Shown: in pieces, positions 1-53,196 of the stretch
Position numbering within the stretch: the first letter of the stretch is position 1
Layout: the number at the start of each line of letters is the position of its first letter
Made by a program: the position numbers and the translations under genes
Origin: a virus
Lineage: Duplodnaviria > Caudoviricetes
Strand: one strand, 5' to 3'
Length of the DNA: 53,196 nucleotides
IMG/VR virus record: IMGVR_UViG_3300036985_003763
Span: 1-53,196 of that record
The notes under the pieces: model-generated
Database searches by the model: none
Seen by the model: the letters and a program-made list of their open reading frames with translations, nothing else
Told to the model about the DNA's origin: nothing

Positions 1-11
1 TGGTTAAAACT

Positions 12-1391: not shown

Positions 1392-1402
1392 GGATTTTTA
1401 GT

Positions 1403-1774
1403 ATGCCGTCATTGACAATTGAACTGCCGCAGGATATTTTAGAGGCTCTAGACATCGCCACGCGTAAAAAGTTTGAAGAGGCGGTCACAAATGATGCTTT
1501 AGGTGGCATCAGCAAGTTAGAGTGGATACAAAACCACCCTGATGGTAAGAAATTTATGACAGAATGTCATCGTATGAAATACGGACATCTGACTAGTAAA
1601 GAGTTACAATTACTAACCGACGCAAGATACCGTGCTTCACTAGGTATTACCGAACGTAAAAAGTTAACTGAACGAAATATACGAAACGACCTTATTGCGC
1701 AGATACTGCGTGAGGGTCTTTTTCCTTCTCTGAAGGACGAGACCAATGTCGTTAACTTTAGACAACAAAAATAA
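1403..1774 (+). CDS. Hypothetical protein, possible ribbon-helix-helix-like N-terminus
   Basis: AAGGA RBS; in operon between helicase and primase; LTIELPQDILEALD start. Confidence 0.65.
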   Translation: MPSLTIELPQDILEALDIATRKKFEEAVTNDALGGISKLEWIQNHPDGKKFMTECHRMKYGHLTSKELQLLTDARYRASLGITERKKLTERNIRNDLIAQILREGLFPSLKDETNVVNFRQQK

Positions 1775-1789
1775 TTCAAGGCGTGATCC

Positions 1790-6305: not shown

Positions 6306-6316
6306 TTAAGTCTACC

Positions 6317-12100: not shown

Positions 12101-12186
12101 CAGTCAAAGGTGTTATCTGGTAGGGGGTCATAGGACACTGTTTGTCCTGTGTCAGAATCGTAATACGTGTAATCGCTATCAGCCAT
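9184..12186 (-). CDS. Large internal virion protein
   Basis: 1000 aa; repeated (Y/F)AxGG motifs; C-terminal GHGQEDLIAAQLSDGEYVIDADVV segment; Thr/Pro linkers. Confidence 0.65.
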   Translation of the reverse strand: MADSDYTYYDSDTGQTVSYDPLPDNTFDWNDWGGNPADYGGSTNGYTPTNTSIGTNYSGSGGSDASVATYTPNFGFEATAKPTSVTDIVQKAAGSFDLGSLASGALDWLMAGNNWSKVLAGAGGLAAFLQANGAKEKSAGESAAEQYKAMYDILHKPVKINGQMVDLYSPINNIKPIDRMRTDATGTFIPPPAAPTTPVKAAMHGGLIHNYANGGLVQNYATGGTVKLTTAQKTANLENLKDQITPGMTQAAVTALYRTVPASSLPSGASTALLNTAKTVNLNSLSDNVVAGTNVKSLVKDSGLLLPSDAVTKLTEIVKPLNLESLTTQVAAGTNVKNLANTVGTANLPKDAITKLTNLVKEANYTQALTEITSASTPAEIDAVIKKYGAANLPANIKTSLLSDLNSDRSTGISTINNRADLLGKITATMTDDELQTLIASYGGALPADAAAKATETLANAKSRETLLQSQGTSSSTFKDVGTLYKTFLGRDPTEDEKKYWGSQLLLDGVISISEVEKFKNASAGESAYTASQAGTAAKSAYTATDVANAAAAYFKDPNSLSADNKAIIQAVGGIENANAVANNVYSGTLKGTTVISSNQVLPTGYTLYTDPKTGLTGYKDAKGNITYAPGVKEYAAITPANAWELLAKEQTGASIPESEFAKYGGRENVLAAAKNYTGAHVGLTTTYQMERYNPTNYAVKVTKNDDGSYTTLYADGKSALGVPTGYEMPAETPTSTGTGTTTEGNAAAAIPRSQNLYTGDFARYGRPGAGGEHQFFNISNPLVDIPGGIYDPSITGANQPKDTWTGLTPTTPATPTPSTGTFAENVARGTQYIPPAATTTPATTPATTPAATPATLGFMPWNYVPPAATTTPTTATTQAFANGGAAWASARNTIPGTEFSYARGGKIPPPERPRMNGHINGDGHGQEDLIAAQLSDGEYVIDADVVAALGNGSTKAGAAALDQMREAIRKDNRAAPINKIPSKAKHPLEYIKKTTRGRK

Positions 12187-12199
12187 TGCTTTGAATCCT

Positions 12200-13963: not shown

Positions 13964-15924
13964 TATGCAGGTACCCAAACGCCGTTAGTGTATGTGTATT
14001 CTACTCCGCCAGCCATTTTAGTAGCGCCTTCTTTTGCTGGTGTTGTAGTTGATGTAGTTGTTGTAGGCCTTGGTTGTTGAGACCCGCCTGATGACCCAAT
14101 GTCGAACGGTAGTATATTACCGCCTTGCGCTGTACGGGCTAGGGCATTAGCAGTTTGTGATGTGATGAACTTACGCAAGTCTGGGTTCGTTACCACGCCA
14201 CGTAATTGCGCATCAATTGCACTTGAAACCAACGGCATACTGCCACCAGCCAACATCGCGCCCCACACATTACCACCGTTCACGCCTGCATTAACGCCAC
14301 TGATACCCGCGTTCACCGCAGTGTTCGACAACATTTGAGCAAAGTTGGAAGGCGTCATGTTAAATTTAGCAGCCATGTCCGCAAGCTCGGTCGGGAAGTT
14401 GTTCATTAACGATTCGCCTAGGCTGTTCGTAATTTGACCAGTTAGACCTGTTGCACCAGCCATACCGGTGATACCACCAACAATATTGCCTTCAGAGAAT
14501 GAGTTCAGTGCACTTAACACGCGAGCAGTCGTACCAATTGGGCCAGGTATGAACGACGCTATTTGCGCAATCTTGCCCAACGTACCACCTAGGAAGCCTG
14601 AGTCTTTCTCAAGCGCACCCTTATAAACCTTACCTGCGTCGTAGCCCAAGTCTTCAGGGTTTACACCCGCATTGACAGCCTGGTTGTAGCGAGTTAACGC
14701 TGCGTTTGGTGCGTAGGAGTAGCCTTTAGGTACTGCTAACTTCTGTGACTTGAACAGGTCGTAGTAGCTACCACCGGATTTATCAATTTGATCTTGCGTG
14801 TACTTAGTTGGGTCTAACCATGGTTTTAGTAAGTCAGATTGCGCATTGTATGCACTGGCTGCGGCAGATATCTGTTCAGGCGTGGCATTTAGCGCAGTAA
14901 CGCCAGACGGTAAGAAGTCTTCCCAGCCTGTGTATTTGTAAGCATTGGCTTTCATGCCAGATGTCTTGTAGCTGCCCAATTGCTCAGGGCGCCCATGAAG
15001 TGCGAAGTACTCAGCGCTAAGTGCTGGGTTCTCACCTAACTGGGCATTGAGATTGTCAAAATACGTGTTACCGTCTGCGTCTTTCTTACCTTTAAGACCT
15101 GACCACTTTTGAACACCGGTGGTTACGTCTTTACCCCATGGGGAGGCTGTGACGTCTTGCCAGTTAGCACTGACAGGATCGTAATATTGGTTCAACGCAC
15201 GTTGCAACTGCGTGTCTTTGGATATGATGTCGTCTACGTCAACGTTGTACTTTTCCGCAATTTGTTGCAGTATCTTTTGCTCATCGGTACCGCCATAAGC
15301 TTCCAATGGGGACAAGCCCATGACACCGATGTCAGGTAGGCCATACTTCTTACCTTTTTCGTTTGTAAGACCCGCATTATTTAGCAACGCAACATCTAAG
15401 TTTGTGTTGTTAAGCGACGTGGTGCCGCCCATGATGTTGGAGGAGTACAACTTGCTGTTAATCTTTTTACGGGCTTCGTCAATAATCTGATTCCAACCCT
15501 CATCCGCAAAGGCAATTGGGCTGCCTACTGCACCTTTCTTGTTTGGGTCAACGTATAGCGGAGCAGATCCGTCTGTTGGGTTAGGGCCGTATACGCCGCC
15601 TATCCCACCCATACCACCAATACCATTACTAGTAGCTGCGGCTGAGCCGTATCCTATGAAAGGGCCACCTAAGGTATTACCTGAACGAGCCCCGTACATC
15701 GTACTAAGCACTTTGTTGTAGTCCACGCCGCCACGGTAAGTGAACGGTGAGTAGTCCATAGTGTTAGGAATCGTGCGGTCTAACGTTGTCCACGCACTTA
15801 TTTTGGTAGGGTTGGTTACTGTAGGCGTTGCGGTATCTGCAGTAGTAGTGCTCGCAGAAGTATCTGCTTCAACAGTGTCTACTGGGACGTTAATACCTTG
15901 TGCATTTCTAACGAATACTGTCAT
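13963..15924 (-). CDS. Hypothetical virion-associated protein
   Basis: 653-aa ORF tightly packed in the late operon; Gly-rich C-terminal helices. Confidence 0.65.
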   Translation of the reverse strand: MTVFVRNAQGINVPVDTVEADTSASTTTADTATPTVTNPTKISAWTTLDRTIPNTMDYSPFTYRGGVDYNKVLSTMYGARSGNTLGGPFIGYGSAAATSNGIGGMGGIGGVYGPNPTDGSAPLYVDPNKKGAVGSPIAFADEGWNQIIDEARKKINSKLYSSNIMGGTTSLNNTNLDVALLNNAGLTNEKGKKYGLPDIGVMGLSPLEAYGGTDEQKILQQIAEKYNVDVDDIISKDTQLQRALNQYYDPVSANWQDVTASPWGKDVTTGVQKWSGLKGKKDADGNTYFDNLNAQLGENPALSAEYFALHGRPEQLGSYKTSGMKANAYKYTGWEDFLPSGVTALNATPEQISAAASAYNAQSDLLKPWLDPTKYTQDQIDKSGGSYYDLFKSQKLAVPKGYSYAPNAALTRYNQAVNAGVNPEDLGYDAGKVYKGALEKDSGFLGGTLGKIAQIASFIPGPIGTTARVLSALNSFSEGNIVGGITGMAGATGLTGQITNSLGESLMNNFPTELADMAAKFNMTPSNFAQMLSNTAVNAGISGVNAGVNGGNVWGAMLAGGSMPLVSSAIDAQLRGVVTNPDLRKFITSQTANALARTAQGGNILPFDIGSSGGSQQPRPTTTTSTTTPAKEGATKMAGGVEYTYTNGVWVPA

Positions 15925-15925
15925 A

Positions 15926-17170
15926 TTATTGTGTTAAATCGTAAAAGGAGAGTGACGCTACTGCATCACCAGTTGTTGATCCTGACACCGTTCTAATTTG
16001 AATAGTATAGACATCGCTTACACCTGCTAATGAAGCCCCTATTTGTAAATCCCAGTTGTAGCCTGTTGGCGCTACTAAATTACCCACACCGCCACTACCG
16101 CTTGTTGTTACATAATCCGTTTGCACAATCGTACCGCCTGTTATTGCTGTGGCGGCTACGTCAAATTCTACAATATTATCTGTTGGTACTGTAGACCATG
16201 AAGCGCCTGTTAACGTAGCGTTCTTAACTAGCGCTACTTCGTAGTTTTGATTTGTTGTTGGCAACACTTGCAATCTGTTTGGTAAGACTACCGCACCTAA
16301 AGCAGTTGACTTGAGACGGATAGATACTAAAGGTAAAAAGGTTGTGCCAATTGTACCTAAAAGAGTTGTGCGGCGAGCAACGTGATCAACTGATGATTGC
16401 TCGTAGCCACCTTCGGAGATGACGGTAGAACATGTCTGCTTTAATGATGAGCTTGAGGCGGTTGCGCCTGTGTTAGTAATTTCAAGACGTAGCGGTAAAA
16501 TGGCTGTCGTCATGTAGACAGTCGTTAGAATGTTAGCGGTGTAGAAAACATTGCACACAATGAATTGACCGTTGATAATGAAGCCACAACGTACGTTACC
16601 CATACCTAACCATTCAAAGTCCATCCACATAATTTGATCTTTAGTCAAATCAAGTGTAAGACCGCTTGGACCTGCGCCGTTTAGTTTATCCACGTTCCAC
16701 GCACTTTGCGCTGCGAACCGTGCGTCGCTTACGGAACCACTGGTTGATGTGCGCAATACAAAGCGAGGCTCAGTAGTACCATTAAGCTCTAGGAAGACGC
16801 CGTTGGCAGTACCAAAGTAACCTACGCGTTGACGTAAGTTTGCCTTAGGTGCGTTCATGACAAACGTAGACATTACCAGTAAACTTTTGCCTGGTTGATA
16901 CGCAAATGAGCGGAAAGTCTGGCGCACAACTTCTGAGCCGCTGGCAGCGGTAACATCTAAGCTTACAGATGACTCGTTGGGAAGGTAAGTAGTTGCACCG
17001 CCTGAAGCAGTACTGGTGTCGAACTGATTGTCAATACCGTAGCGGTTTTGACTGTCGAACATGGTGTATGGATTGCCTACGCGTAGACGACCAAAAGCAT
17101 CAAGGCTAGTATTAGTAACACTGTTGCTAAATGTAATCTGTCCTGGCACGTAACTCATATTAAAATCCAT
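15926..17170 (-). CDS. Conserved phage structural protein (DAFGRLRV type)
   Basis: Beta-rich; DAFGRLRVGNP, YQPGKS and EWLGMG motifs recalled from many phage virion proteins. Confidence 0.65.
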   Translation of the reverse strand: MDFNMSYVPGQITFSNSVTNTSLDAFGRLRVGNPYTMFDSQNRYGIDNQFDTSTASGGATTYLPNESSVSLDVTAASGSEVVRQTFRSFAYQPGKSLLVMSTFVMNAPKANLRQRVGYFGTANGVFLELNGTTEPRFVLRTSTSGSVSDARFAAQSAWNVDKLNGAGPSGLTLDLTKDQIMWMDFEWLGMGNVRCGFIINGQFIVCNVFYTANILTTVYMTTAILPLRLEITNTGATASSSSLKQTCSTVISEGGYEQSSVDHVARRTTLLGTIGTTFLPLVSIRLKSTALGAVVLPNRLQVLPTTNQNYEVALVKNATLTGASWSTVPTDNIVEFDVAATAITGGTIVQTDYVTTSGSGGVGNLVAPTGYNWDLQIGASLAGVSDVYTIQIRTVSGSTTGDAVASLSFYDLTQ

Positions 17171-42313: not shown

Positions 42314-42766
42314 TTATTTACCAGTAACAAAGTCTTTAGCGCAAGCTTGTGCTTTAGCTAAGTCTTTAAAGTTTCCAACGTGTATAGATTTGTTGTTTAC
42401 TGTAAAACTAACTTTGTAATAATTTCTGTCTTTCGATACACCATAAATACCCGTATTGCTTGGCATACTTGGTTTATTTAAAGCATTTTCTCTGTAGTTA
42501 ACTAATCGTAAATTTTCAATAGTATTATCAGATTTATTTCTATTAACGTGATCAATCTGTTTATCAGATGGTATTTCACCCTTTAGCAAAGACCATATTA
42601 ATCTATGCGCGTAGTATTTAGTTTTGTTAAACTGTATAGCAATGTAGCCTTCTTTTCTTAAAGTTCCAGCTTTTTTACCAGTTGCTTTCCAATACAAATT
42701 ACCATTGTTATACTTAAATAAATTTAATAACTCATCTAGAACAATAGGCTTTTTAACAATTTTCAT
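42314..42766 (-). CDS. HNH(-AP2) homing endonuclease
   Basis: YYAHRLIW...IDHVNRNKSDNTIENLRLV...NTGIYGV; low GC. Confidence 0.92.
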   Translation of the reverse strand: MKIVKKPIVLDELLNLFKYNNGNLYWKATGKKAGTLRKEGYIAIQFNKTKYYAHRLIWSLLKGEIPSDKQIDHVNRNKSDNTIENLRLVNYRENALNKPSMPSNTGIYGVSKDRNYYKVSFTVNNKSIHVGNFKDLAKAQACAKDFVTGK

Positions 42767-42950: not shown

Positions 42951-43134
42951 GGTAATTCTCCTAGTTAGTAATGTGCAAAAAATGCACATATGTACATATT
43001 TCACTGTTTTTTATACACATCGTGTGTATATGTATAGATTTTGCTCTTTTTTGTACACGTTACAATACAGAAAACCATTATTTATGCTATATTTATTGTA
43101 CGCAGTTTTTTAATTTACAAGGAAGGTATCCATT

Positions 43135-43293
43135 ATGGCAACAGCTAAGAAAGGTCTGTATGCAAACGTTCATGCTAAACGTAAACGTATTGAAGAAGGC
43201 TCTGGCGAGAAGATGAATAAAGTAGGCTCTAAAAATGCACCTTCTGACAAAGACTTTAAAGACGCAGCTAAGACTAAAAAGAAAGGAAAGTAA
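43135..43293 (+). CDS. Small basic phage protein (GLYANxHAKR type)
   Basis: MATAKKGLYANVHAKRKRIEEGSGEKM...; AAGGAAGG RBS; not in ORF track. Confidence 0.8.
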   Translation: MATAKKGLYANVHAKRKRIEEGSGEKMNKVGSKNAPSDKDFKDAAKTKKKGK

Positions 43294-43294
43294 T

Positions 43295-43561
43295 ATGCCC
43301 ACGACTAAAGACTCTCGCTTAGAACGCGCTGGTGTGTCCGGCTACAACAAACCTAAGGCAACTCCTGGTCACCCAACTAAGTCCCACGTGGTGGTGGCCA
43401 AAGAAGGTGACCAAGTCAAGACCATTCGCTTTGGTCAGCAAGGCGTCAAGGGTAGCCCCGAAGGTAGCGCTCGTAACGACTCCTTCAAAGCACGTCACGC
43501 CAAGAACATTGCCAAGGGCAAGATGTCTGCTGCGTATTGGGCAGACAAAGTTAAGTGGTAA
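43295..43561 (+). CDS. Small basic phage protein (IRFGQQG...SFKARH...SAAYWA type)
   Basis: Conserved motifs; likely start MPTTKD right after the upstream stop. Confidence 0.8.
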   Translation: MPTTKDSRLERAGVSGYNKPKATPGHPTKSHVVVAKEGDQVKTIRFGQQGVKGSPEGSARNDSFKARHAKNIAKGKMSAAYWADKVKW

Positions 43562-43619
43562 TCCGTAACACTCAAATTCCGTAGTCTGTAACAATCCTCG
43601 TTTTATTCCACACAACCCA

Positions 43620-43759
43620 GTGCGACGTGCCTGGTACTCGGTGCAAGGTGCTGAGTACTTGGTACCTGGTGCTACGTGCTGAGTACTTGGTGCTAGGTAC
43701 TTAGTACTCCGAACCAAGCACTAGGCACCCTGAACCAAGCACCCCGTACTCCGCGCTTC
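43620..43759. repeat. Phased heptamer array 1 (20 units)
   Basis: gtgcgac gtgcctg gtactcg gtgcaag gtgctga...; 18 GYRC and 2 GAAC at exact 7-nt spacing. Confidence 0.9.
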
Positions 43760-43920
43760 GTCTCGCCTAGTTAACTTTAAACGTTTAAATTAGCTTCTTT
43801 AATTCTTTGTATTTTTCTGTAGCTACTCGGCACCCCTTAGCCCCTGCATGTCAGAACCGGTTTGGGGGTGCATGGGGTCGCAAAATCAAGAAGCCAAGCA
43901 CGACGAAACGGCGTCGCATA

Positions 43921-44027
43921 GCCCTTTGCGCCTAGCGCCACGCACCTAGCACGGCGTGACGTCGCACCTTAGCGCCTTGCACCTAGCGCCACGGGCTTAG
44001 CACCATGCACCTAGCACGCCGCGCCAG
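43921..44027. repeat. Heptamer array 2 (about 15 units)
   Basis: gcgccta gcgccac gcaccta gcacggc...; two 8-nt units. Confidence 0.85.
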
Positions 44028-44041
44028 TGTATATATATACA

Positions 44042-44083
44042 TTGCAAATAGTGTTTGACATCATTATATATACCTGCGAAAAT
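44042..44083 (+). promoter_or_regulatory. Early promoter(s) for ardC
   Basis: TTGACA-17-GAAAAT with extended TG; overlapping TTGCAA-17-TATATA. Confidence 0.55.
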
Positions 44084-44129
44084 TCTGTTATCGCGCTGTA
44101 TCGCGCTGACTATTTGAAAGGTATACATT

Positions 44130-44981
44130 ATGACGCAAGCTATCTATCAACAAGTGACTGACACTATTATCGCTCAGCTTGAGCAAGGCGCGGAAGCATG
44201 GGCTAAATGCTGGGCGGCTAACAGCCAAGCGCCTAGCAATCTAGTAAGCGGCAAGGCATACGGCGGCATTAATAACTTAGTGCTAACACTTGCCGCCAAT
44301 GCGCGTGGCTTCACTAGCAATCAATGGGCGACTTATCAGCAACACGCCGCCGCCGGCTATCAAGTGCAGAAGGGCGAAAAAGCCACCACAATCATTTTTT
44401 ATAAGCCCGTCGCCGGTAAAGTGGACGCGGATACTGGCGACGTCACTAGCGGCTATGCCGTGCTAAAGTCATACAGCGTATTTAACTTAGCTCAAACCGA
44501 CGCGCCGGCGCAACCAGCCGCGCCGCTCGATACTTTCGAAGCCATTGCAGAATGCGAAGCGCGTATCGTGGCGACGGGCGCTGATATTAGACACGGCGGC
44601 GACCGTGCATTTTATCGCCCTGCCGATGATAGTATTACCTTGCCACCTCGCGCCAGCTTCACCACGCCAGCCCATTATTATGCCACTGCCTTTCATGAGC
44701 TAAGCCACTGGACTGGCGCGAAGCATAGACTAGCCCGTGACTTATCCGGACGGTTCGGCAATGAAGCCTACGCCGCCGAGGAACTTATCGCCGAACTAAG
44801 CGCGGCATTTCTTTGCGCGTCGCACGGCGTGACTGGTGACTTGCGCCACGCTGGTTATATTGAAAGCTGGTTGCGCGTGTTGCGCGATGATAACAAGGCT
44901 ATATTTAAAGCGGCGGCATTGGCGCAAAAAGCGGCGGACTATGTGCAAGGCGTCACGCACGCCGAAGCTGTAGCGGCTTAA
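44130..44981 (+). CDS. ardC: ArdC-like ssDNA-binding/zincin antirestriction protein
   Basis: YGGINNL, WATYQQ, VQKGEK, VFNLAQ, AFY, FHELSHWTG, YAAEELIAEL and YIESW motifs. Confidence 0.92.
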   Translation: MTQAIYQQVTDTIIAQLEQGAEAWAKCWAANSQAPSNLVSGKAYGGINNLVLTLAANARGFTSNQWATYQQHAAAGYQVQKGEKATTIIFYKPVAGKVDADTGDVTSGYAVLKSYSVFNLAQTDAPAQPAAPLDTFEAIAECEARIVATGADIRHGGDRAFYRPADDSITLPPRASFTTPAHYYATAFHELSHWTGAKHRLARDLSGRFGNEAYAAEELIAELSAAFLCASHGVTGDLRHAGYIESWLRVLRDDNKAIFKAAALAQKAADYVQGVTHAEAVAA

Positions 44982-45001
44982 ACACTGCCGGCAATACCCA
45001 T

Positions 45002-45031
45002 GCCCTTAGTGCGACGTGCTAGGGGCTTTTT
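45002..45031 (+). terminator. Rho-independent terminator after ardC
   Basis: GCCCTTAG...CTAGGGGC-TTTTT; built from heptamer units. Confidence 0.7.
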
Positions 45032-45050
45032 AATGGGCGCTCAATGCATC

Positions 45051-45156
45051 GCGCTAGGTGCTAGGATACTAAGCGCCACGCACTAGGCACAATGCACTAA
45101 GCGCCACGCACTTGGCACGTCGCACTAAGGGCTAAGCACTTGACACTTTGCGCCAC
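45051..45156. repeat. Heptamer array 3
   Basis: gcgccac gcactag gcacaat gcactaa gcgccac gcacttg gcacgtc gcactaa... Confidence 0.85.
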
Positions 45157-45174
45157 GCAATACCAAGCCGCTTT

Positions 45175-45450
45175 TTGGAATGTGTGACAGTGTGCCGGCA
45201 GGCTGGCATTGCTTCCTAGTCACTCTGTCACACAATAACTTAATAAATTAAAATTTTATAGTAATACCTAGGGTTTTAGGTATTGGCTAATATCACTATT
45301 TAACCTTGTAGAATTGGACGCAAAATTGCAGTTATTTTGTGACGGCTTGCAACCCATTGATTTATATAAAATAAATCTAAGAACTTAATTTTTTAAATCT
45401 GTGATTGTGTGACAGAAAAAGTTGTAAGCTATTGATTATAAACACATTGT
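45175..45450. other. Putative replication origin (AT-rich, TGTGAC repeats)
   Basis: Non-coding; TGTGTGACAG/CTGTCACACA inverted repeat, further TGTGAC copies and ATTGATT motifs. Confidence 0.4.
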
Positions 45451-45586
45451 AATTTTAAGCTAAAAAGTGCCTAAAAAGTAAGCAAAGTATTATGTTAAAT
45501 TGGCAACAACAATCTTTTACAAAATGGCAATAAGAACAAGTAAAATAAGCATTTACAAAAACAAGCATTTATTTTGCATTTAGGTA

Positions 45587-45615
45587 TTGACAACGTGCGA
45601 AGTGCGGCGTATCGT
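45587..45615 (+). promoter_or_regulatory. Strong sigma70 early promoter
   Basis: TTGACA-17-TATCGT with AT-rich upstream element. Confidence 0.75.
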
Positions 45616-45672
45616 GGTGCTTAGTGCGAAGTGCAGGGCACCAAGCACCAAGCACCAAGCACCAAGTGCAAC
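45595..45672. repeat. Heptamer array 4 overlapping the promoter
   Basis: gtgctta gtgcgaa gtgcagg (gcaccaa)x4 gtgcaac. Confidence 0.85.
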
Positions 45673-45713
45673 ACTATCGCGGCTTAGCCGCTGACTATAT
45701 AGGAGTAAACACC

Positions 45714-45914
45714 ATGGCAACATTAGCTTATAACACTTTAACAATGGGCGACATCACCAAGCTGGATATCCGGCAGGGCGATTTTACCGAGGGCGACGGT
45801 TCATATACCGAGCTGGTTATCTCTGACAAGCACGGCAACCGGTTCAGCATCACGCTTTATTCTGACGCCGAGCCGCTGGGCTTAAATATAACACGCTCAC
45901 CCAACAGAATTTAA
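45714..45914 (+). CDS. Early hypothetical protein
   Basis: AGGAG RBS before MATLAY. Confidence 0.7.
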   Translation: MATLAYNTLTMGDITKLDIRQGDFTEGDGSYTELVISDKHGNRFSITLYSDAEPLGLNITRSPNRI

Positions 45915-45927
45915 AGGAGTAGACACC

Positions 45928-46344
45928 ATGGCAACAAGGGCTTTATATATCTTTGACGACGGCGTGACTGCCGTCACCGTGTATAAACACTGGGACGGAT
46001 ACCCCGAAATAAAAGGCGCGTATGGCTTTATATTTAAAGCCCTGCCGTATGCTTGGGACTTGCCGCGATATGAGGCGGACGACTTTGCGGCGGCTTTCGT
46101 GGCGGCTAATAAACTTAAAGGCGGCGGCGACGTGCGCGTGTGCAACGAGGCGACGACCAACGGCGACGTGCTAGGCATTGAGTTTACCTACACCGTTAGA
46201 CAATACGGCAATGCGCTAGTGGTAGACACGCACAGCCATTTTCACGCTGACAAGGTTTACGAACTTGTATATATAACAGCAGTGGACGGAGTGCGAGGTG
46301 CGACGCCCGTGCCACTTGATGACAATGACAACCTACCATTATAG
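45928..46344 (+). CDS. Early protein (MATRA...YxHWDGYP type)
   Basis: AAGGAG RBS; VYKHWDGYP motif common in phage early genes. Confidence 0.8.
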   Translation: MATRALYIFDDGVTAVTVYKHWDGYPEIKGAYGFIFKALPYAWDLPRYEADDFAAAFVAANKLKGGGDVRVCNEATTNGDVLGIEFTYTVRQYGNALVVDTHSHFHADKVYELVYITAVDGVRGATPVPLDDNDNLPL

Positions 46345-46346
46345 GA

Positions 46347-46877
46347 GTGATACCCATGCTTAACTATGAAATTGAAACAGACGACCACAGTTTTAGCCCA
46401 CGCGAATGGGACAATCTAGGCGTAATAGTCACATGGCACAGGCGCTATGGCTTAGGCGACCAACAACCAACCCATGCACCAAGCGAGTGGCTGGACAATC
46501 TAAAAGCGCGTGATCCAAGCGCCATTGTGATACCGGTTTATATGTATGAGCACGGCGGCATAACCATAAGCACGTCGCCCTTTAATTGCCGGTTTGACAG
46601 TGGACAGCTAGGCTACATTTATACAACACTAGACCGCGCTAAGCAATTTAGAGTGCAAGCGTGGAAACGCTGGACTAAAGCGCGACGTGCGGAGTGCGAG
46701 GCTGTATTGCACAGGGAAATTGCGGAGTATGACCAGTTTTTGCGTGGCGACGTTTACAGCTACAAAATACTGGACGACGGCGAAGTGTTGGACAGCGCCG
46801 GCGGATACTATGACCGCGACGAGTGCGAGGCGGACGCGCAAGCGATTATCGACAACCTACTATTAAAGGCGGCGTAA
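46347..46877 (+). CDS. Early protein (PVYMYEHGG...FDSGQLG type)
   Basis: SPREWDNLG and YDQFLRGDVY motifs; family often seen near antirestriction genes. Confidence 0.75.
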   Translation: MIPMLNYEIETDDHSFSPREWDNLGVIVTWHRRYGLGDQQPTHAPSEWLDNLKARDPSAIVIPVYMYEHGGITISTSPFNCRFDSGQLGYIYTTLDRAKQFRVQAWKRWTKARRAECEAVLHREIAEYDQFLRGDVYSYKILDDGEVLDSAGGYYDRDECEADAQAIIDNLLLKAA

Positions 46878-46879
46878 TC

Positions 46880-47494
46880 ATGCAAACCATTCAATTCATG
46901 CCTAAGCTTAGCGCGACCGGCAAAATGCCGTGCGCCAGCTTCAGTATACCGGCGCAAGCGTGTAAGACCGGCGGCAAGCTGGTTAAAATTAAGGGTTCAG
47001 TGTGCTCTGACTGTTACGCGCTCAAGGGTTCGTATCGTTACCCTACTGTTATGGCGCACCGAAGCCACAATCTTAATTCAATGGCGAACTTGGACGACTG
47101 GACGGCTAATATGATTAAGCTAATCCACAGCACCAACGAAACGGGATACTTTCGCTGGTTTGATAGTGGCGACGTGCAAAGTGCGAAGCACTTGGAAGCC
47201 ATTATTGATATCGCCGAAGCCCTGCCGGACGTGCGCTTTTGGTTACCGACCAAGGAAGCCGGCATAATTAAGCGCAACAAGCGTGACGTGCCGGACAACC
47301 TAGCCATAAGACTATCAATGCCAATGATTGACCAGCCGCCAACGGGCGCGTGGAAGCTGACCAGCACAGTGCGAAGTGCTAAGGGCGACGTGCAGGGTGC
47401 GCAGTGCAAAGCACCAAGCAACAACGGCAAGTGCGGGACGTGCCGCGACTGCTGGGATACAAGCATAGCTAACATAACTTACATTAAACACTAA
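46880..47494 (+). CDS. Gp88-like Cys-rich (probable Fe-S) protein
   Basis: KMP, CKTG, CSDCYA, FRWFDSGD, FWLPTKE, CGTCRDCW motifs. Confidence 0.8.
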   Translation: MQTIQFMPKLSATGKMPCASFSIPAQACKTGGKLVKIKGSVCSDCYALKGSYRYPTVMAHRSHNLNSMANLDDWTANMIKLIHSTNETGYFRWFDSGDVQSAKHLEAIIDIAEALPDVRFWLPTKEAGIIKRNKRDVPDNLAIRLSMPMIDQPPTGAWKLTSTVRSAKGDVQGAQCKAPSNNGKCGTCRDCWDTSIANITYIKH

Positions 47495-47507
47495 GGGAGT
47501 AAACAAC

Positions 47508-47681
47508 ATGGAAATGAAACTAGACAACGTATTGAAAGCATTGGACTACATTATAGACAATGAATATAACCACTATTTAGAGTGCGTGGACGACGACAAC
47601 GAGGCGACCGTGCAAAGCCACATATATTTAACTGCCGTGGACGCCAAAACCGACTTAAACCGCTATTTTAACTTTATGTAA
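47508..47681 (+). CDS. Small acidic early protein
   Basis: GGGAG RBS; 57 aa; not in ORF track. Confidence 0.65.
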   Translation: MEMKLDNVLKALDYIIDNEYNHYLECVDDDNEATVQSHIYLTAVDAKTDLNRYFNFM

Positions 47682-47695
47682 GGGAGTGACTAACA

Positions 47696-47890
47696 ATGAC
47701 CGACAACGCTAACAAAATAAACAGCATTATTGCCTACAACCTAGACTTATGCCAATCAGACAGCAGTTTTAACGACCAATTTGTATATGACTTGCTAATG
47801 TATGGTTTTAAAGGGCTGGCTAACATGACCGACGCCGAGCTGGACAAGGAACTGGCGCAATGTGACTTTGATACATCAACGGAGGTATAA
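47696..47890 (+). CDS. Small acidic early protein
   Basis: GGGAG RBS; GFKGLANMTDAEL motif. Confidence 0.7.
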   Translation: MTDNANKINSIIAYNLDLCQSDSSFNDQFVYDLLMYGFKGLANMTDAELDKELAQCDFDTSTEV

Positions 47891-47892
47891 CA

Positions 47893-48084
47893 ATGACATT
47901 ACACGATAACATAAGCTGGTGCGTGAGCCGCCTAGTGGATAATTACGAGTGGCAGGATATTATAGACTATGAGAACTGGCTGGACTTACAAGCTACTTTA
48001 ACTAACGCAATAATGGCGGACACGCGCCTAGCCAATCAAGTTTTAAAGGTATGCCTAGACGAAGGCATAATTGAGGAGGAATAA
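47893..48084 (+). CDS. Small acidic early protein
   Basis: GGAGG RBS. Confidence 0.7.
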   Translation: MTLHDNISWCVSRLVDNYEWQDIIDYENWLDLQATLTNAIMADTRLANQVLKVCLDEGIIEEE

Positions 48085-48087
48085 ATT

Positions 48088-48270
48088 ATGGTTACCAATC
48101 CAGCATTAAACGAAGCATTATCAGACTTAGACCAAGCGCAACGACTACTTGAAAACGTTTACGGTTACGCCCAAGACATAAGGAACGGCGAGCTAGAACG
48201 GCTTATGAGCGTGGCAGACAGTTGCATTATTGACGCAATAAACAGCATAAATAAAATACATTCATCTTAA
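48088..48270 (+). CDS. Small early protein
   Basis: GAGGAGG RBS. Confidence 0.65.
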   Translation: MVTNPALNEALSDLDQAQRLLENVYGYAQDIRNGELERLMSVADSCIIDAINSINKIHSS

Positions 48271-48283
48271 AGGAGTTTTAATC

Positions 48284-48565
48284 ATGGACTACGGACTATT
48301 TGCAGATAGGTTCAAGCCTATTCAGAACTTTATAGACGCCAGCGCCAGCCTAGACGGTGTTATGTTTGAAACCTACGGCGACGAACTAGACTATGTTAAG
48401 GCGCAACCCGATAACAAAATATGGACGTATTGCGACGACGGTGACAACGGTTACCTATCGCAGGGCTATCATATAGTAAACCGGCTGGGCTATGTTATAT
48501 GTGCCAACCCTTGGACAGACGGCGACGACGAAGTGCACTTATATTCAGAAAAGGACTTTAACTAA
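48284..48565 (+). CDS. Small acidic early protein
   Basis: AAGGAG RBS; FETYG...IWT...GYHIVNRLGY motif. Confidence 0.75.
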   Translation: MDYGLFADRFKPIQNFIDASASLDGVMFETYGDELDYVKAQPDNKIWTYCDDGDNGYLSQGYHIVNRLGYVICANPWTDGDDEVHLYSEKDFN

Positions 48566-48566
48566 A

Positions 48567-48779
48567 ATGAACTTTGAATTTGAGCACCAAGGTTACTTAG
48601 TGACCGCTAATGTTACCGAAACTTACGACGGCTACGGCACTGGCGACAGCCCGACATTGTATGAAGTAAATATCCGTAAGGTTTTGGATTTGGACGGCGA
48701 CAACGTAAAGCAAAGCGAGCTAGGCGACGGCTTTATTGACGAGCTAGAGGACGAAGCTATCAGAGTATATAAAGGATAA
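48567..48779 (+). CDS. Small acidic early protein (paralog 1)
   Basis: Start MNFEF; GYLVTA...YGTGDS...YEV. Confidence 0.7.
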   Translation: MNFEFEHQGYLVTANVTETYDGYGTGDSPTLYEVNIRKVLDLDGDNVKQSELGDGFIDELEDEAIRVYKG

Positions 48780-48783
48780 AACT

Positions 48784-48999
48784 ATGCGAGTAGAATTTGA
48801 AATGGACGGCTACTTAGTGACTGCTACTGTAAAAGAGATTAGCGACCCATACGGCACGGGTAATAGCAAAACTATTTATGAGGTAGACATAACCAAGCTA
48901 GTAGAGCAAAGAACGGGGCGCGTGGTGGACGAAAAAGAACTAAGCGAAGCCCTATTTGACAGCATGATTGACGAAGCGATTGACGTATTTAAGGAGTGA
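48784..48999 (+). CDS. Small acidic early protein (paralog 2)
   Basis: GYLVTA...YGTGNS...YEV. Confidence 0.7.
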   Translation: MRVEFEMDGYLVTATVKEISDPYGTGNSKTIYEVDITKLVEQRTGRVVDEKELSEALFDSMIDEAIDVFKE

Positions 49000-49250
49000 T
49001 TAAAATGACTATGCAACCAATAGGTGCAAGCACCTTAGTAGAGTGGCACGACGGCAACAAAGAAAATGCTTATATATCGTTTGGAACGTGGAACGATGAC
49101 GACGAAAAAGATAGCCATGGGGTATACGATGATAAGATTTTCTTTTACGCCCACGAAGGCGAGCCGGAAATAAAAGCTATGGCGACAGGTTACACGGAAG
49201 GCTTTAATGTGATTGATTATGATTTAGTTTATGACAAAGGCGAGGTATAA
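48996..49250 (+). CDS. Small acidic early protein
   Basis: AAGGAG RBS; YISFG...DDKIFFY. Confidence 0.7.
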   Translation: MIKMTMQPIGASTLVEWHDGNKENAYISFGTWNDDDEKDSHGVYDDKIFFYAHEGEPEIKAMATGYTEGFNVIDYDLVYDKGEV

Positions 49251-49252
49251 AA

Positions 49253-49787
49253 ATGTATAAAGTTTACAACCATAACAGAACGTGCCTAGGCACATTTGAC
49301 AACGAAAAGGACGCGCTGGCTTGTGCAGAGGAGTATCGCTATCAGACAGGGAACGCCGCCTATGTTGAAAGGCTAATCAATGTTAAATAAACACTATGAA
49401 ATGCTTGGCGACGCAGTGCGACGTGCGAGGAACGAAGTGCTAAGTAGCGAGGAACTGGGCAAGCTAATCATGCAGTATGTGGAACTGTTACAACAGGAAG
49501 CAATGCGCGACGAGCGCGACATAATCAACGGTAAAGGAGTGTAGCATGGCAAACTTAAAGGACTGGGATAAGGAATATCAAGAGATGGTGACCGAGCACC
49601 TATATGGACTGGAAAAGGAAGCCCTAGTAAACTGGCTGATAGAAATTATGCACAATAACGATATAGAGGACATGATTGACATCATAGAGGAATTGAAAAG
49701 GAGTGAGCTATGACCGCAGACACAATGGACAAAGTGGTGTTTTGGGTAAGCGTAATGATTGCCTTGTATTTTATTGTAAAGGGATAA
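49253..49787 (+). CDS. Four coupled mini-ORFs (49253-49390, 49380-49544, 49546-49713, 49710-49787)
   Basis: RBS-like motifs and adjacent or overlapping start/stop codons; the last is a 25-aa single-TM peptide. Confidence 0.6.
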
Positions 49788-49788
49788 T

Positions 49789-49971
49789 ATGAAACGATTT
49801 GATGGTTACAACCGCCACGACTTTTACTACCCACGCAGTAGCCGCGAGGCATTTGGCAGTAATTTTGAAGTGGACGAAGTTGTAAAAGAGGAACATTGGT
49901 GGGATGTGGTGATTTTTGCAGTGGTGCTAGGTGCGCTGATGGTAACGGTGACATACTATGCAAATTCGTAG
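49789..49971 (+). CDS. Small membrane protein
   Basis: YPRSSREAFG motif plus C-terminal TM segment. Confidence 0.7.
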   Translation: MKRFDGYNRHDFYYPRSSREAFGSNFEVDEVVKEEHWWDVVIFAVVLGALMVTVTYYANS

Positions 49972-50212
49972 GCGGTATGCCAAAACTAGAATGGCGAGCC
50001 ACCGGCGGAACTACCTGCCCAAGTGGTTGAAGTTTAATCGTTACCTAGCCTTTACGACAACCTTGAAATACGGTAAGAAAGCACCGCTAAGCCGATGGCA
50101 CAGGAAAGCAAAATGCGACTGATAATAGAGTATATACAATGTTACTGGCAGAGTTTTGCGCTGGGTATGTTGGCTATGTTTACAGCACTAAAGATAAAGG
50201 AAAGGAAAGCTA

Positions 50213-50629
50213 ATGAAGTTACACCCAATGCACGTCGTAGAGATAAATAACAACCGTGATGCAGTCTACAAGTATGTAAGAGATAGGAAAGACACAACAG
50301 CGTCGCAGTGCATGGCAGACCTACAAATAGGCGAGAAGTTGAAAGTTTATTTAGAATGGCTGGCATTACGCGGACACCTTACAAGGGTAAAGCGAACGAT
50401 AGATGGTAGAAGGCAGTATATCTACAATGCTGGGCTGATACCGTATGTAAAAGATACCGTTACCATACCCACGCAAGACGATGTAAAGGCAGCAGACCTG
50501 CTAAGTAGCGTGACAAAAGTGTATAGGCTACTGGACAGACCCGCGCCCGAAGGTGCTAAGCGTGAGAAAAAGGCAAGTGGCTACGCCGGCAATATGCAAA
50601 GTAGTATGCAAACTTTTAACAGTTGGTAA
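50213..50629 (+). CDS. Probable winged-helix protein
   Basis: Helix pattern followed by GHLTRVKRTIDGRRQYIY wing. Confidence 0.55.
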   Translation: MKLHPMHVVEINNNRDAVYKYVRDRKDTTASQCMADLQIGEKLKVYLEWLALRGHLTRVKRTIDGRRQYIYNAGLIPYVKDTVTIPTQDDVKAADLLSSVTKVYRLLDRPAPEGAKREKKASGYAGNMQSSMQTFNSW

Positions 50630-50638
50630 GGAGATGAC

Positions 50639-50851
50639 ATGGAAATAAACTTAAAGATAGAAGACAGTGACTTGTTGTGGCAAACCTTGGACGGTGTTGT
50701 GCTAAGCGTATTAAAAGCACTGAAGCAAGACACCGAAAGCGAACTGATGCTACCCGACATGCACCCGCAAGACAAAGAGATGAGCGAGAAAGTGCTGGAA
50801 GCGTGTAAGGTGCTGATTAAGTATTACAGCGTAAACGAGGCAAGCGAGTAG
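50639..50851 (+). CDS. Hypothetical protein
   Basis: AAGGAG RBS. Confidence 0.7.
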   Translation: MEINLKIEDSDLLWQTLDGVVLSVLKALKQDTESELMLPDMHPQDKEMSEKVLEACKVLIKYYSVNEASE

Positions 50852-50864
50852 TAACATTATTAGA

Positions 50865-50894
50865 TTGACAATTCAGTAGATGTAAGCGTAAAGT
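50865..50894 (+). promoter_or_regulatory. Sigma70-like promoter
   Basis: TTGACA-18-TAAAGT in an intergenic gap. Confidence 0.55.
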
Positions 50895-50962
50895 AGCAAG
50901 ACATCAAGCACAAAGTGCTTTGATTACAACCACATAACCATGAAACTTGAAGGAGTTTAGAG

Positions 50963-51706
50963 ATGGACACCCTAGAAGACTTACTTGAAGCACTCAGTGC
51001 GATGCGCGAAGAACTTAAAGACGAGAACGATAAGGCAGACGCGACAGAGCGCAACCGTAATTACCAAGCGTTTATGAACATCATGCGTCACGACGAGGAC
51101 TTGTCATGATATGGGGCTTGGTGTTGCTAGTAATTTGGATAATTTTGATCGGGGCAGACTAATGGTAAAGCAAAAATACGACCCACAGGACTTTGACGCG
51201 AGGGATGTGTTTGCCGCCTTAGCATTGGTGGGTTTACTGGCGAACGATAAAGAGTGGACTGACGACGCCTTGTGCGAGTTAGCATACGACTTGGCAGACG
51301 TCATGTTAAAAACTAAAAGGAAAAAATAAAATGACAGATAACACACGATGTGCGAAGTGCGATGCACCCTTGTTTGATGACCTTAGAGCCGTGAGTGACC
51401 TAGGCAAAGGCGTTGAGCAAGTATGCGCGGCATGCTGGCTAGAAATCAATGAGCAAGTCTACCTAGAAGACTACCCTGATGACTTGGGGGTTGCCTAATT
51501 TTAAGGGGCAAACCGCAATGACTACAGGATTTTTTGAGAGGGGTAAACGGATAGCTAAGTGGGCGGATAATAATATGGCTAAAGATGAAGGCTACTGGTG
51601 CGTAATATGCCAACGCTTTATTGAGGCAGATGACGATGGGTTGATTGTGCATGATGATATACCACATGGTGACATGACGTTTAATGAAGAGGAAAAACCG
51701 CAATGA
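50963..51706 (+). CDS. Run of small coupled ORFs, including an 18-aa hydrophobic peptide and a CxxC-CxxC protein
   Basis: MDTLEDLL..., MIWGLVLLVIWIILIGAD, MVKQKY..., MTDNNTRCAKC...CAAC and MTTGFF... with adjacent starts and stops. Confidence 0.55.
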
Positions 51707-51879
51707 CTAAAGACGAAGCATTAAAACTTATTGAACAAAAATATATTGAAACATTTAATGATAAGCCTGATGCAAATACTAAAATGATGATGCAAATGTC
51801 ATCACAGCGTGTAGCAGACGGTGAGAAGTTTCAATGGGAAAATAACGGACAATGGAAAGTAATGAGGTTTTTAAAATGA
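51703..51879 (+). CDS. MTKDEALK-start protein 1
   Basis: 58 aa; ATGA-coupled; not in ORF track. Confidence 0.65.
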   Translation: MTKDEALKLIEQKYIETFNDKPDANTKMMMQMSSQRVADGEKFQWENNGQWKVMRFLK

Positions 51880-52337
51880 TGACTAAAGACGAAGCGTTAA
51901 AGATGGCGATTGAAGCATTTGACAATATTGATATGAGTAATCAAACCAATGAGGAGTGCGCTAGGGCATGGTTTATTGAAGGGTATGTACAAGCGTTAGA
52001 ATGGCCACCAAAAGAAGCATTAGAGCAGCCAAGTGTTGCAGAATTAAATGACGAATACTTACATGATACCTATGTGGAAGGGTTGTCACAGCCAGCACAA
52101 GAACCTGTGGCGTTAAAGTTTCCAACCATGCTTCGCAAGATGTGGTCAGGTGGTGAAGTGCAAGAATGGCTAGACAAACAGCAATCACTTTACACCCAAC
52201 CTGCAACATCATGGCAAGGATTAAGTGATGATGAGATATGGAATATAGCAAATTTTTTAGGTAAAAATAAAGAATGGGATTATCCAGTTATGTTTGCTAA
52301 AACTATTGAAAAATCAATAAAGGAGAAGAACACATGA
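51876..52337 (+). CDS. MTKDEALK-start mosaic protein 2
   Basis: Modules KEALEQP, AQEPVA and WQGLSDDEI...KEKNT. Confidence 0.7.
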   Translation: MMTKDEALKMAIEAFDNIDMSNQTNEECARAWFIEGYVQALEWPPKEALEQPSVAELNDEYLHDTYVEGLSQPAQEPVALKFPTMLRKMWSGGEVQEWLDKQQSLYTQPATSWQGLSDDEIWNIANFLGKNKEWDYPVMFAKTIEKSIKEKNT

Positions 52338-52386
52338 CTAAAGACGAAGCATTAAAGATGGCGATTGATGTTAACTTTCGGAGAAT

Positions 52387-53046
52387 ATGATGGAAATTAA
52401 ACATAGATATACAGGTGAGGTTTTGCGCACGATTGATGCAGACACCTTGGATGGTGCTAACTTGATGGATGCTAACTTGCGTGGTGCTTACTTGCGTGGT
52501 GCTGACTTGCGTGGTGCTAACTTGAGTGGTGCTAACTTGATGGGTGCTAACTTGATGGGTGCTGACTTGCGTGGTGCTGACTTGATGGGTGCTAACTTAA
52601 GTGGTGCTTACTTGCGTGGTGCTGACTTGATGGATGCTAACTTGCGTAGTGCTGACTTGCGTAGTGCTAACTTGATGGATGCTGACTTGCGTAGTGCTGA
52701 CTTGCGTAGTGCTGACTTGCGTAGTGCTGACTTGAGTGGTGCTGACTTGCGTAGTGCTTACTTGCGTGGTGCTAACTTGAGTGGTGCTAACTTGAGTGGT
52801 GCTAACTTGATGGGTGCTAACTTGAGTGGTGAAATTTTAAAGAAAACACCTATCGTAATCTCAAACTTAACATGGGATGCGTTAATCACTATGGAATACT
52901 TAACTATTGGATGCCAACGCCACACGCATGAAGTATGGGAAGCGTTCACTGATGATGAAATATCTAAAATGCAAAGTAGAGCCAGTGAATTTTGGAAAGC
53001 TAATCGAGAGTGGTTATTAAGTGCTTGTAAATCACATAGGAGTTAA
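52387..53046 (+). CDS. Pentapeptide-repeat protein
   Basis: About 25 A(D/N/Y)Lxx repeats encoded by 15-nt DNA repeats; C-terminal IGCQRH domain. Confidence 0.92.
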   Translation: MMEIKHRYTGEVLRTIDADTLDGANLMDANLRGAYLRGADLRGANLSGANLMGANLMGADLRGADLMGANLSGAYLRGADLMDANLRSADLRSANLMDADLRSADLRSADLRSADLSGADLRSAYLRGANLSGANLSGANLMGANLSGEILKKTPIVISNLTWDALITMEYLTIGCQRHTHEVWEAFTDDEISKMQSRASEFWKANREWLLSACKSHRS

Positions 53047-53050
53047 ACAA

Positions 53051-53196
53051 ATGACTAAAGACGAAGCATTAAAGATGGCGATTGAAGCGTTGGAAATGCA
53101 CGTTCCTCATTACATAAAAGATAGAGGATGCGAAGCAATCCAAGCCTGTAAAGAAGCATTAGAACAGCCAGCACAAGAACCTGTTGAGCAAAGCCC
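53051..53196 (+). CDS. MTKDEALK-start protein (runs off window)
   Basis: MTKDEALKMAIEALE...KEALEQPAQEPV. Confidence 0.7.
   Translation, partial: MTKDEALKMAIEALEMHVPHYIKDRGCEAIQACKEALEQPAQEPVEQS

Follow-up and report, generated by a model that had tools for sequence, protein, structure and literature searches.

Introduction

Phages are known to avoid restriction sites of 4–8 bp and protospacer-adjacent motifs (PAM), in each case on both strands. Animal viruses are under dinucleotide pressure, at CpG from ZAP, at UpA from RNase L and at TC from APOBEC3, and phage T7 is said to escape the Type III enzyme EcoP15I by carrying its sites in one orientation. Here we describe the complete 53,196-bp contig of a tailed phage (IMG/VR record IMGVR_UViG_3300036985_003763; the window), in which the dinucleotide TC has been cut about four-fold on one strand of about 7 kb, across about 27 mostly unrelated small genes. 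The segment concerned is the sense strand of the early operon, which runs from the promoter-like site P2 at 45587 to about 52850; ongoing purifying selection, acting on the nucleotide sequence, keeps it nearly TC-free.

Four other described systems come closest. In phage T5, sensitivity to restriction and CRISPR is limited to the first-entering 8% of the genome, the first-step-transfer (FST) DNA; with EcoRI and CRISPR, only sites in this first-entering DNA count, and the injection stop is a repeat-rich region with DnaA boxes (10.1101/866236). In Murciavirus (Autographiviridae), motif loss from the leading region permits escape from Type I restriction–modification (R-M), the motifs injected first deciding sensitivity (PMC12455610). 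CmdT of the CmdTAC system modifies single-stranded mRNA by ADP-ribosylation at GA dinucleotides; it is triggered late, by a capsid protein, and its authors deem escape by site loss implausible (10.1101/2024.02.24.581662). Finally, T4 endonuclease IV (DenB) is a dC-specific endonuclease of single-stranded DNA (ssDNA) that prefers dTdCdA (PMC2095790, PMC1635256).

Full-text literature searches, with supplementary files outside their scope, returned no account of a phage with TC purged from one strand. The purge lies within a larger early zone nearly free of restriction-type sites; a site-free early zone is an already known type of feature, and the one-strand dinucleotide purge is a variant of sequence-avoidance counter-defence that we did not find in print.

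Depletion of TC on the sense strand of the early operon

From 46001 to the contig end the plus strand carries 8–15 TC per kb, against 23–91 elsewhere. Over 45928–53196 it holds 89 TC, an observed/expected ratio (o/e) of 0.28, with 595 GA (o/e 0.98), 325 CT (1.03) and 222 CC (0.85); for comparison, TC stands at 0.78 in 1–3835 and at 0.70 in the minus-strand genes. The first-pass annotation had described the phenomenon as the elimination of CTC and GTC from one strand across the early genes, and the words are indeed missing there: no CTC occurs at 47021–50993 (3972 nt) and no GTC at 46574–50234 (3660 nt), and nowhere else in the contig are these words missing for so long (next longest gaps, 1867 and 1052 nt). 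Counts confirm that TC is outnumbered by CT in 47520–48090 (3 versus 30), that GAG and GAC remain plentiful on the same strand (56 and 122 in 47025–50992, with 0 CTC and 3 GTC) and that the plus-strand replication genes use CTC freely (28 CTC and 37 GTC in 1–3835). The strand specificity and the spread over many unrelated open reading frames (ORFs) were thus correctly described, but the signal is wider than first proposed: it is the dinucleotide TC itself, of which CTC and GTC are the extreme cases.

Twelve of the 16 NTCN words are strongly depleted in 45928–53196, with no CTCC, CTCG or GTCC and a single copy each of CTCT and TTCT. The TC that survive are mostly in ATC and TCA (50 TCA, 8 TCC, 12 TCT and 19 TCG; ATCA, 25 against 32.6 expected), and every one of the 26 in the core of the segment (47316–50234) is preceded by A or T.

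TC density is normal again from about 52853 (11 TC in the last 290 nt or so), and the pentapeptide-repeat gene has no TC in its first 155 or so codons and eight in its last 65 or so, a pattern that suggests recombination within the gene, with a joint near 52850. Upstream, TC o/e is 0.58 in the ArdC-like gene and about 0.61 in the first small ORF after P2; 44130–45927 as a whole is at 0.47 for TC and 0.59 for GA.

Two simple candidates were rejected on these counts. CRISPR PAMs can be of the TTC type, but their avoidance would hit both strands, and the early arm has 22 TTC alongside 153 GAA on the plus strand, with GA undepleted. Ultraviolet photoproducts at TC predict a loss from the template strand, yet that strand holds 595 TC, one opposite each GA of the plus strand.

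Amino-acid, codon and palindrome controls

The 27 early ORFs (2325 codons) were recoded by drawing synonymous codons with the usage of the rest of the genome while keeping the proteins. They contain 87 TC, against 254 after recoding, and the deficit extends over all codon positions (27, 31 and 29 at positions 1-2, 2-3 and 3-1, versus 72, 76 and 106). In the 16 ORFs of 47508–50851, CTC and GTC together occur four times, against 44.3 ± 6.0 under genome usage and 24.6 ± 4.5 under the usage of the early genes themselves; none of 1000 recodings had fewer than 12. The first-pass annotation had allowed that the depletion might vanish once amino acids and codons were controlled for, or prove equal in all coding strands; it persists under that control and differs between coding strands. 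Chance and composition are excluded as its cause.

Avoidance also crosses codon boundaries. At four-fold codons, T in the third position occurs in 3 of 79 cases before a codon starting with C and in 166 of 513 otherwise (odds ratio 0.08, p 5e-9; the two other gene sets give 0.43 and 0.57). Two-fold, Y-ending codons except Asp behave likewise (15 of 61 before C versus 156 of 343; odds ratio 0.39), and in other genes the odds ratios for both codon classes are 0.43–0.80. This avoidance across codon junctions cannot be the work of tRNA usage.

The first explanation offered earlier, that losing TC from one strand erases GA..TC palindromic or bipartite restriction sites and leaves asymmetric sites unidirectional, survives in part. 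GATC, GANTC and TCGA are nearly erased in the early zone and number 48, 70 and 49 genome-wide against about 202 expected each, yet they hold only about 47 of the roughly 167 missing TC. Outside these words the early ORFs retain 83 TC versus 203 ± 11 expected, so palindrome avoidance makes up about 28% of the deficit and the remainder is a purge of TC itself. In the rest of the genome, setting the three words aside removes most of the junction TC deficit (141 versus 148 and 1179 versus 1244). Spaced palindromes at other distances, GA-N(k)-TC with k = 2–12 and TC-N(k)-GA, show no depletion beyond the TC count and were rejected as the target. Nor is a single asymmetric site borne out, given the 12 depleted NTCN words.

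The codon spectrum bears on a purely mutational origin, namely recurrent editing of C to T at TC sites of the non-transcribed strand. Such editing would share both its context, TC, and its strand with the APOBEC pattern of animal viruses, and a cytidine deaminase was among the agents first suggested. However, TT is no more frequent in the early arm (o/e 1.18) than elsewhere (1.08–1.22), and no NTT codon rises above the level of other genes (CTT 9%, GTT 25%, ATT 39%). Serine has moved to AGY codons (76% in the early ORFs versus 34–35% elsewhere), a change that editing cannot make, and TT is involved in just 7 of the 28 TC differences from the close relative L008 (below). An editing footprint is thus largely refuted by the codon spectrum, and we regard it as scarcely credible.

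A by-product of high expression, through purine loading, unstructured mRNA, avoidance of Rho sites or of anti-Shine-Dalgarno-like words, or the tRNA pool, is also highly improbable. The early arm is 58% purine (G 26%, C 19%), CTCC, CCTC and TCCT occur in it 0, 1 and 1 times, and mild TC deficits (0.4–0.8) are found in arms downstream of ArdC homologs (50–63% identity) in 24 further phage contigs, all of which would suit such constraints. Yet composition-based expectations failed to reproduce an o/e of 0.28, the mirror dinucleotide CT is undiminished, and other purine-loaded arms are unpurged: the relative L015 is 58–61% purine at 12001–15000 with TC o/e of 0.69–0.93. Minimised structure was rejected, the early mRNA being no less structured than its recoded versions (−25.6 kcal/mol per 120 nt versus −25.1 ± 0.4 and −24.5 ± 0.7). 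Avoidance of Rho loading at YC dimers was likewise rejected: CC is at the level seen elsewhere, and C-ending codons are favoured unless T precedes the C (GAC 72%, CAC 70%, TGC 74%, AAC 60%, and ACC too, against TTC 9%, ATC 14%, GTC 5% and CTC 1%). As to the tRNA pool, NTC and NTT codons are read by the same tRNAs, and the junction effect cannot derive from tRNAs.

The purge in related phages

Relatives were found with the GP88-family gene as marker, and 80 loci were fetched. The purge is present in L008 (94% identical), and in a second clade (L009–L013, L020 and L083; 62–64% GP88 identity), the homologous arms reaching 2-kb minima of TC o/e of 0.17–0.31. A third clade (52–54% identity) is intermediate, at 0.53–0.63 where TC is the minimum; the remaining GP88 loci lack the purge, the lowest values being about 0.5–0.7 in a few. 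The GP88 gene itself has 14 TC in the window, 7–11 in the two purged clades of relatives (11 in one, 7–10 in the other) and 31–45 (most 32–40) in other homologs with a GC content of at least 0.50. None of seven helicase relatives (39–53% identity) is purged, although one of them, L006, is partly depleted (0.40–0.66), and no TC-depleted stretch was found in the first 50 kb of Roseobacter phage CRP-901.

Both purged clades follow the same context rule (ambiguity code: S, G or C; W, A or T; Y, C or T): WTCA is tolerated, STC and TCY are purged, 12 of the 16 NTCN words are depleted, and surviving TC favour A or T at −1 and A at +1. In the second clade ATCA and TTCA are at or above expectation, GTCA occurs 0–1 times where about 20 are expected, and GTCC, CTCC, TTCC and CTCT are near zero. 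This rule provides a concrete substrate pair, S-TC-Y purged and W-TC-A tolerated, for finding the agent.

The second clade also separates the purge from its surroundings. Its arm lacks GTAC, CCWGG and GATC but is rich in GGCC, so that the avoided palindromes differ in part from those of the window. L010 has no GTAC between 6001 and 17000, and the gap continues over convergent minus-strand ORFs (13129–16425). TC on the plus strand is reduced (0.30–0.61) over the plus-strand arm only; over the minus-strand block it is at 0.85–1.16, with GA on the plus strand at 0.74–0.90. Because that block is unpurged, TC depletion follows the coding strand and not site-free DNA as such.

The arms of the window and L008 are a mosaic, with patches of 72–90% identity between non-homologous inserts, and the whole L008 arm is purged; patches and inserts are all TC-poor, which implies that early genes already purged form a shared pool. 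Over 2423 aligned early-arm columns, no dinucleotide is less conserved than TC (12 of 28, the other 15 being conserved at 60–81%). Four of the 28 TC differences, taken in both directions, are TC/AG swaps, as expected of serine switches between TCN and AGY. Because TC turns over fastest, the surviving TC are transient and not functionally kept.

An early zone cleared of restriction-type sites

The TC purge is nested in a zone of 9446 nt (43751–53196) nearly devoid of seven short palindromic restriction-type sites, with the ArdC-like gene as its first gene. By expectations computed from base composition, the zone has 1 GTAC against 35 (with 227 in the rest of the contig), 1 GGCC against 25.5, no CCNGG or GGNCC against 25.5 each, no GANTC, 2 GATC and 4 TCGA against 35 each. 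It is sharply delimited: GTAC last clusters at 43634–43746, within the first of two long palindromes, and after the contig start GGCC resumes at 44, CCWGG at 93 and GTAC at 135. Sites common elsewhere are therefore missing from one contiguous, sharply bounded early segment, as in site-free leading DNA; not every site avoided elsewhere is avoided there, however, CCGG being the exception in the window (below) and GGCC in the second-clade arm, where it reaches 23 per kb. GCGC is about two-fold over-represented throughout the contig.

Because the zone is cleared of seven palindromic sites, it must have been under heavy restriction pressure, and the position of the purge inside it raises the question of whether TC was lost to restriction that needs both orientations of a site, Type III-like or by frequent nickases that break DNA only with nearby cuts on both strands. 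One cleared strand in the first-entering DNA would leave every asymmetric site containing TC or GA unidirectional, and the reported T7 escape from EcoP15I would be the precedent. Some asymmetric 5-mers are in fact missing, or nearly so, in both orientations in 45928–53196 (GAGAC/GTCTC 0/0, TGGAG/CTCCA 0/0, CTGAG/CTCAG 0/1, CCAGA/TCTGG 0/0). Still, with 12 of 16 NTCN words depleted, such restriction would require many independent systems or a site of 2–3 nt, instead of the single 5–6 bp asymmetric site in one orientation that marks Type III-style bias. Neither does the bias extend over all exposed DNA regardless of gene direction: the GTAC-free zone of L010 includes minus-strand ORFs (the block at 13–17 kb) with neither TC nor GA purged on the plus strand, and in the window the ArdC unit, inside the zone, is mildly depleted on both strands. 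We judge this explanation distinctly unlikely.

The scarcity of those 5-mers both ways is possibly avoidance of Type IIS-type sites; words containing GGAG are also low in the segment.

Strong profile hits (ArdcN, PF08401, 3.5e-32; MPTase-PolyVal, PF18818, 2e-50; phrog_7245, 'anti-restriction protein', 6.7e-84) predict that the first gene of the zone encodes an ArdC-like protein, with an ssDNA-binding N-domain and a zincin metallopeptidase domain and an anti-restriction function. Beyond it come an AT-rich spacer, P2 and the long operon (Table 1). Arrays with a 7-nt period (GYRCnnn, mostly GCACnnn/GTGCnnn) lie at 43619–43750, 43928–44042, 45002–45157, 45617–45687 (in the leader downstream of P2) and 47369–47432; they flank both promoter-like sites, two of them fold as 130-nt palindromes either side of the ArdC-like gene, and the run at 45638 has a length variant of 14 nt (two heptads). 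In its layout of palindromes, promoter-like sites and ArdC-like gene, the zone resembles what is described for the leading region of Murciavirus and for the first-entering DNA of T5. A cluster of DnaA boxes is absent from the window (10 one-mismatch matches versus 13.9 expected). L010, by contrast, has about nine TTATCCACA-type DnaA boxes at 6070–6250, beside other repeats and just upstream of the second-clade early arm, a cluster that may correspond to an injection-stop region like that of T5 or to an origin.

Candidate agents

A selective agent with very short single-strand specificity is needed, because TC has been removed from one strand, in many genes and in relatives, and the removal is ongoing. 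The best reading, which we put forward tentatively, is that a factor of this kind selects against TC by reading either early mRNA or the sense strand when unwound. The segment would then be a 'hardened' part of the genome, expressed first and probably entering first, and would have to function before phage counter-defence proteins exist. The agent would read one strand with a specificity of 2–4 nt, most strongly at S-TC-Y and sparing W-TC-A. The first-choice target would be the early mRNA, attacked at UC by an endoribonuclease or an RNA-modifying enzyme, with the unwound sense DNA strand a close second. Early mRNA is favoured because the purge tracks the coding strand, early transcripts precede counter-defence and a precedent exists in CmdT. 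Of the explanations first listed, an agent acting on mRNA would best fit the restriction to the coding strand. As to its source, a bacterial factor of the freshwater community, hitherto undescribed, might attack or mark single-stranded nucleic acid at UC/TC, as an RNase or as a modifier of RNA or ssDNA, and a phage lineage would have cleared the word from the sense strand of the operon that has to be expressed first; this we offer as a possibility, more guardedly still.

The N-domain of ArdC is described as ssDNA-binding, and a match to this family opens the zone, as might be expected if the agent worked on DNA. A host deaminase, ADP-ribosyltransferase or nickase could act on early operon DNA unwound by transcription, at TC on the non-template strand or at GA (most strongly R-GA-S) on the template, where a lesion or nick would halt RNA polymerase. 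Its sequence predictions would be those of the mRNA reading, coding strand and early arm only. Among ssDNA ADP-ribosylating enzymes, the DarT type has the motif TNTC, and DarT had been named in the first-pass annotation; the motif does not fit, as residual TC are enriched for T at −2 (1.43 times background in the window, 1.18 times in L010), and the excess of NTT that a deaminase would leave is absent. Enzymes of the TC type do exist for ssDNA, such as the T4 endonuclease IV that prefers dTdCdA (PMC2095790, PMC1635256). Its best site, TCA, is however the most tolerated here (50 of the 89 residual TC, with ATCA close to expectation in the window and ATCA and TTCA at or above it in the second clade), and a TCA nuclease of this type was rejected. 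Moreover, replication would expose both strands genome-wide, yet this arm alone is purged. On balance a DNA-level agent is unlikely, if less so than the other rivals.

Self-immunity offers another account of why early genes alone are affected: an early phage nuclease or RNase directed against host DNA or mRNA would cut TC-type sites, and the early operon, being present at that time, would have to be without them. Davison proposes this logic for T5 A1 and FST DNA (10.1101/866236). No nuclease or RNase family was found in the PHROGs scan, which covered every early ORF except GP88 (26 of 27) and a shorter first post-P2 ORF and gave weak or unnamed matches only, or in a Pfam scan of 10 proteins; because most early ORFs are ORFans, this absence is weak evidence. 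Later phage mRNA and DNA, with TC o/e of 0.70–0.78, would need separate protection, and we hold self-immunity to be very unlikely.

Several observations weigh against a single-strand agent as the cause. Parts of the same putative transcripts are unpurged, namely the ArdC-like gene, the first post-P2 ORF and the last third of the pentapeptide gene; the reading therefore has to assume that these stretches, together with the first half of the GP88 gene, reached a mosaic arm recently. We know of no enzyme with S-TC-Y specificity, and literature searches returned none. P1, P2 and the terminator are putative, being consensus matches only, and ORFs in the relatives are mechanical calls. The public runs in which the sequence occurs are metagenomes of freshwater, lakes, sediment and sludge, available as assembled contigs, with no RNA run among them. 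Finally, CCGG behaves in reverse, with 22 in the zone against 25.5 expected and 29 in the rest (1–43750) against 101; because CCGG is avoided elsewhere and not in the zone, the zone cannot simply be regarded as the best-protected part of the genome. The CCGG sites of the zone lie mostly in a GC-rich stretch, 43857–47291. Their reversed behaviour indicates that early and late compartments can hold different avoidance histories.

The zone adds an uncultured example of defence systems selecting on first-expressed or first-entering DNA, and dinucleotide scans that take account of the strand could pick out early or leading regions, as well as unknown defences, in metagenomic phage contigs. If the proposed agent exists, it would represent a new kind of bacterial defence specificity.

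Other features of the contig

Table 1. Coordinates of the features discussed, in window positions
Feature	Position	Strand	Remark
Helicase	12–1391	+	phrog_62 / phrog_1156 matches cover helicase and primase
Primase	1790–3835	+	With helicase, same-strand comparator without purge (TC o/e 0.76–0.78)
Terminase, portal, tail and lysis-type proteins	3832 to about 43000	−	
HNH endonuclease gene	42314–42766	−	phrog_99, 3.3e-46; between packaging genes and early zone
Imperfect palindrome of GYRCnnn heptads, 130 nt	43619–43750	+	−71.4 kcal/mol, z −6.1; inner edge of zone
Zone nearly without seven palindromic sites	43751–53196		Counts versus composition
P1, promoter-like	44055–44083	+	TTGACA-17-GAAAAT, TG upstream; consensus match only
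Early arm, about 29 mostly small ORFs	44130 to contig end	+	
ArdC-like gene (predicted)	44130–44981	+	First plus-strand gene of zone
Terminator-like hairpin (45002–45026) and T run, at base of 130-nt imperfect heptad palindrome	45002–45132	+	−75.6 kcal/mol, z −6.95
P2, promoter-like	45587–45615	+	TTGACA-17-TATCGT, before long early operon; consensus match only
TC-purged sense strand of long early operon	45928–52850	+	TC counts; amino-acid, codon and palindrome controls
GP88-family gene	46880–47494	+	PF17338, 3.9e-29; marker for finding relatives
Pentapeptide-repeat protein gene	52387–53046	+	PF00805, 8.5e-59; possible DNA mimic

The phage has no close cultured relative. By terminase, the nearest cultured phages are Roseobacter phages CRP-901 and CRP-902 (49% identity). 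In near and distant DNA searches against cultured phages the early arm had no match, and positions 1–8000 gave just four short matches, to three distinct phages. Look-ups of two early proteins in an atlas gave no function, and no relatives were found for a 176-aa early protein.

Just outside the site-free zone, two small, very basic ORFs of 52 and 88 aa (43135–43561, plus strand) match phrog_16028 and phrog_7595, respectively, and their TC and restriction-site content is normal; the match of the 88-aa ORF weakly resembles the terminal part of a 'DNA pilot' minor head protein. Word depth in the probable source sample roughly doubles over the piece 43051–45666 (172, against 84–97 for the neighbouring pieces), which takes in these two ORFs as well as the first palindrome, the spacer and the ArdC unit. 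The piece may be a terminal repeat or a segment common to two co-occurring strains, but contig pieces in that sample break where strains diverge, and the depth step there supports no conclusion.

Comparison with known systems

The zone resembles T5 FST DNA in being a sharply bounded early segment without sites frequent elsewhere, with long imperfect palindromes and repeat arrays at its border; the likeness extends to the border of the second-clade arm, with its DnaA-type boxes, and to a predicted early counter-defence protein, here ArdC-like. There is no homology to T5, however, and entry in two steps is described for T5. The window has no DnaA-box cluster, and T5 is not reported to have a one-strand dinucleotide purge. 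Like the leading region of Murciavirus, the zone is variable and carries a predicted anti-defence gene; unlike in Murciavirus, where a single Type I motif is concerned, seven palindromic sites and a one-strand dinucleotide are missing, and the phage is unrelated.

With T7 and EcoP15I the locus shares a strand-asymmetric word distribution as a possible restriction escape, although in T7 this reportedly concerns one 6-bp site throughout the genome, and here almost every word that contains TC, within the early arm alone. The DenB system of T4 offers a TC-containing site read by a single-strand nuclease born of phage–host conflict; yet TCA is the best-tolerated context here, and no DenB-like protein was found among the proteins scanned. 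CmdTAC is instructive in principle, for a dinucleotide-specific mRNA defence enzyme would select on one strand only, but the resemblance goes no further, GA not being depleted. The authors of that work deem site loss an implausible route of escape; here about 7 kb of a phage genome have been freed of a dinucleotide, and if the proposed reading is true, site loss can defeat a dinucleotide-reading defence. In the animal viruses shaped by ZAP, RNase L and APOBEC3, too, a viral genome is depleted of a dinucleotide read by a host factor. The present case differs in belonging to another domain of life, in being confined to one operon and one strand and in showing no excess of editing products; if our reading is correct, it would be a bacterial counterpart of the CpG/ZAP or TC/APOBEC pressure on animal viruses.

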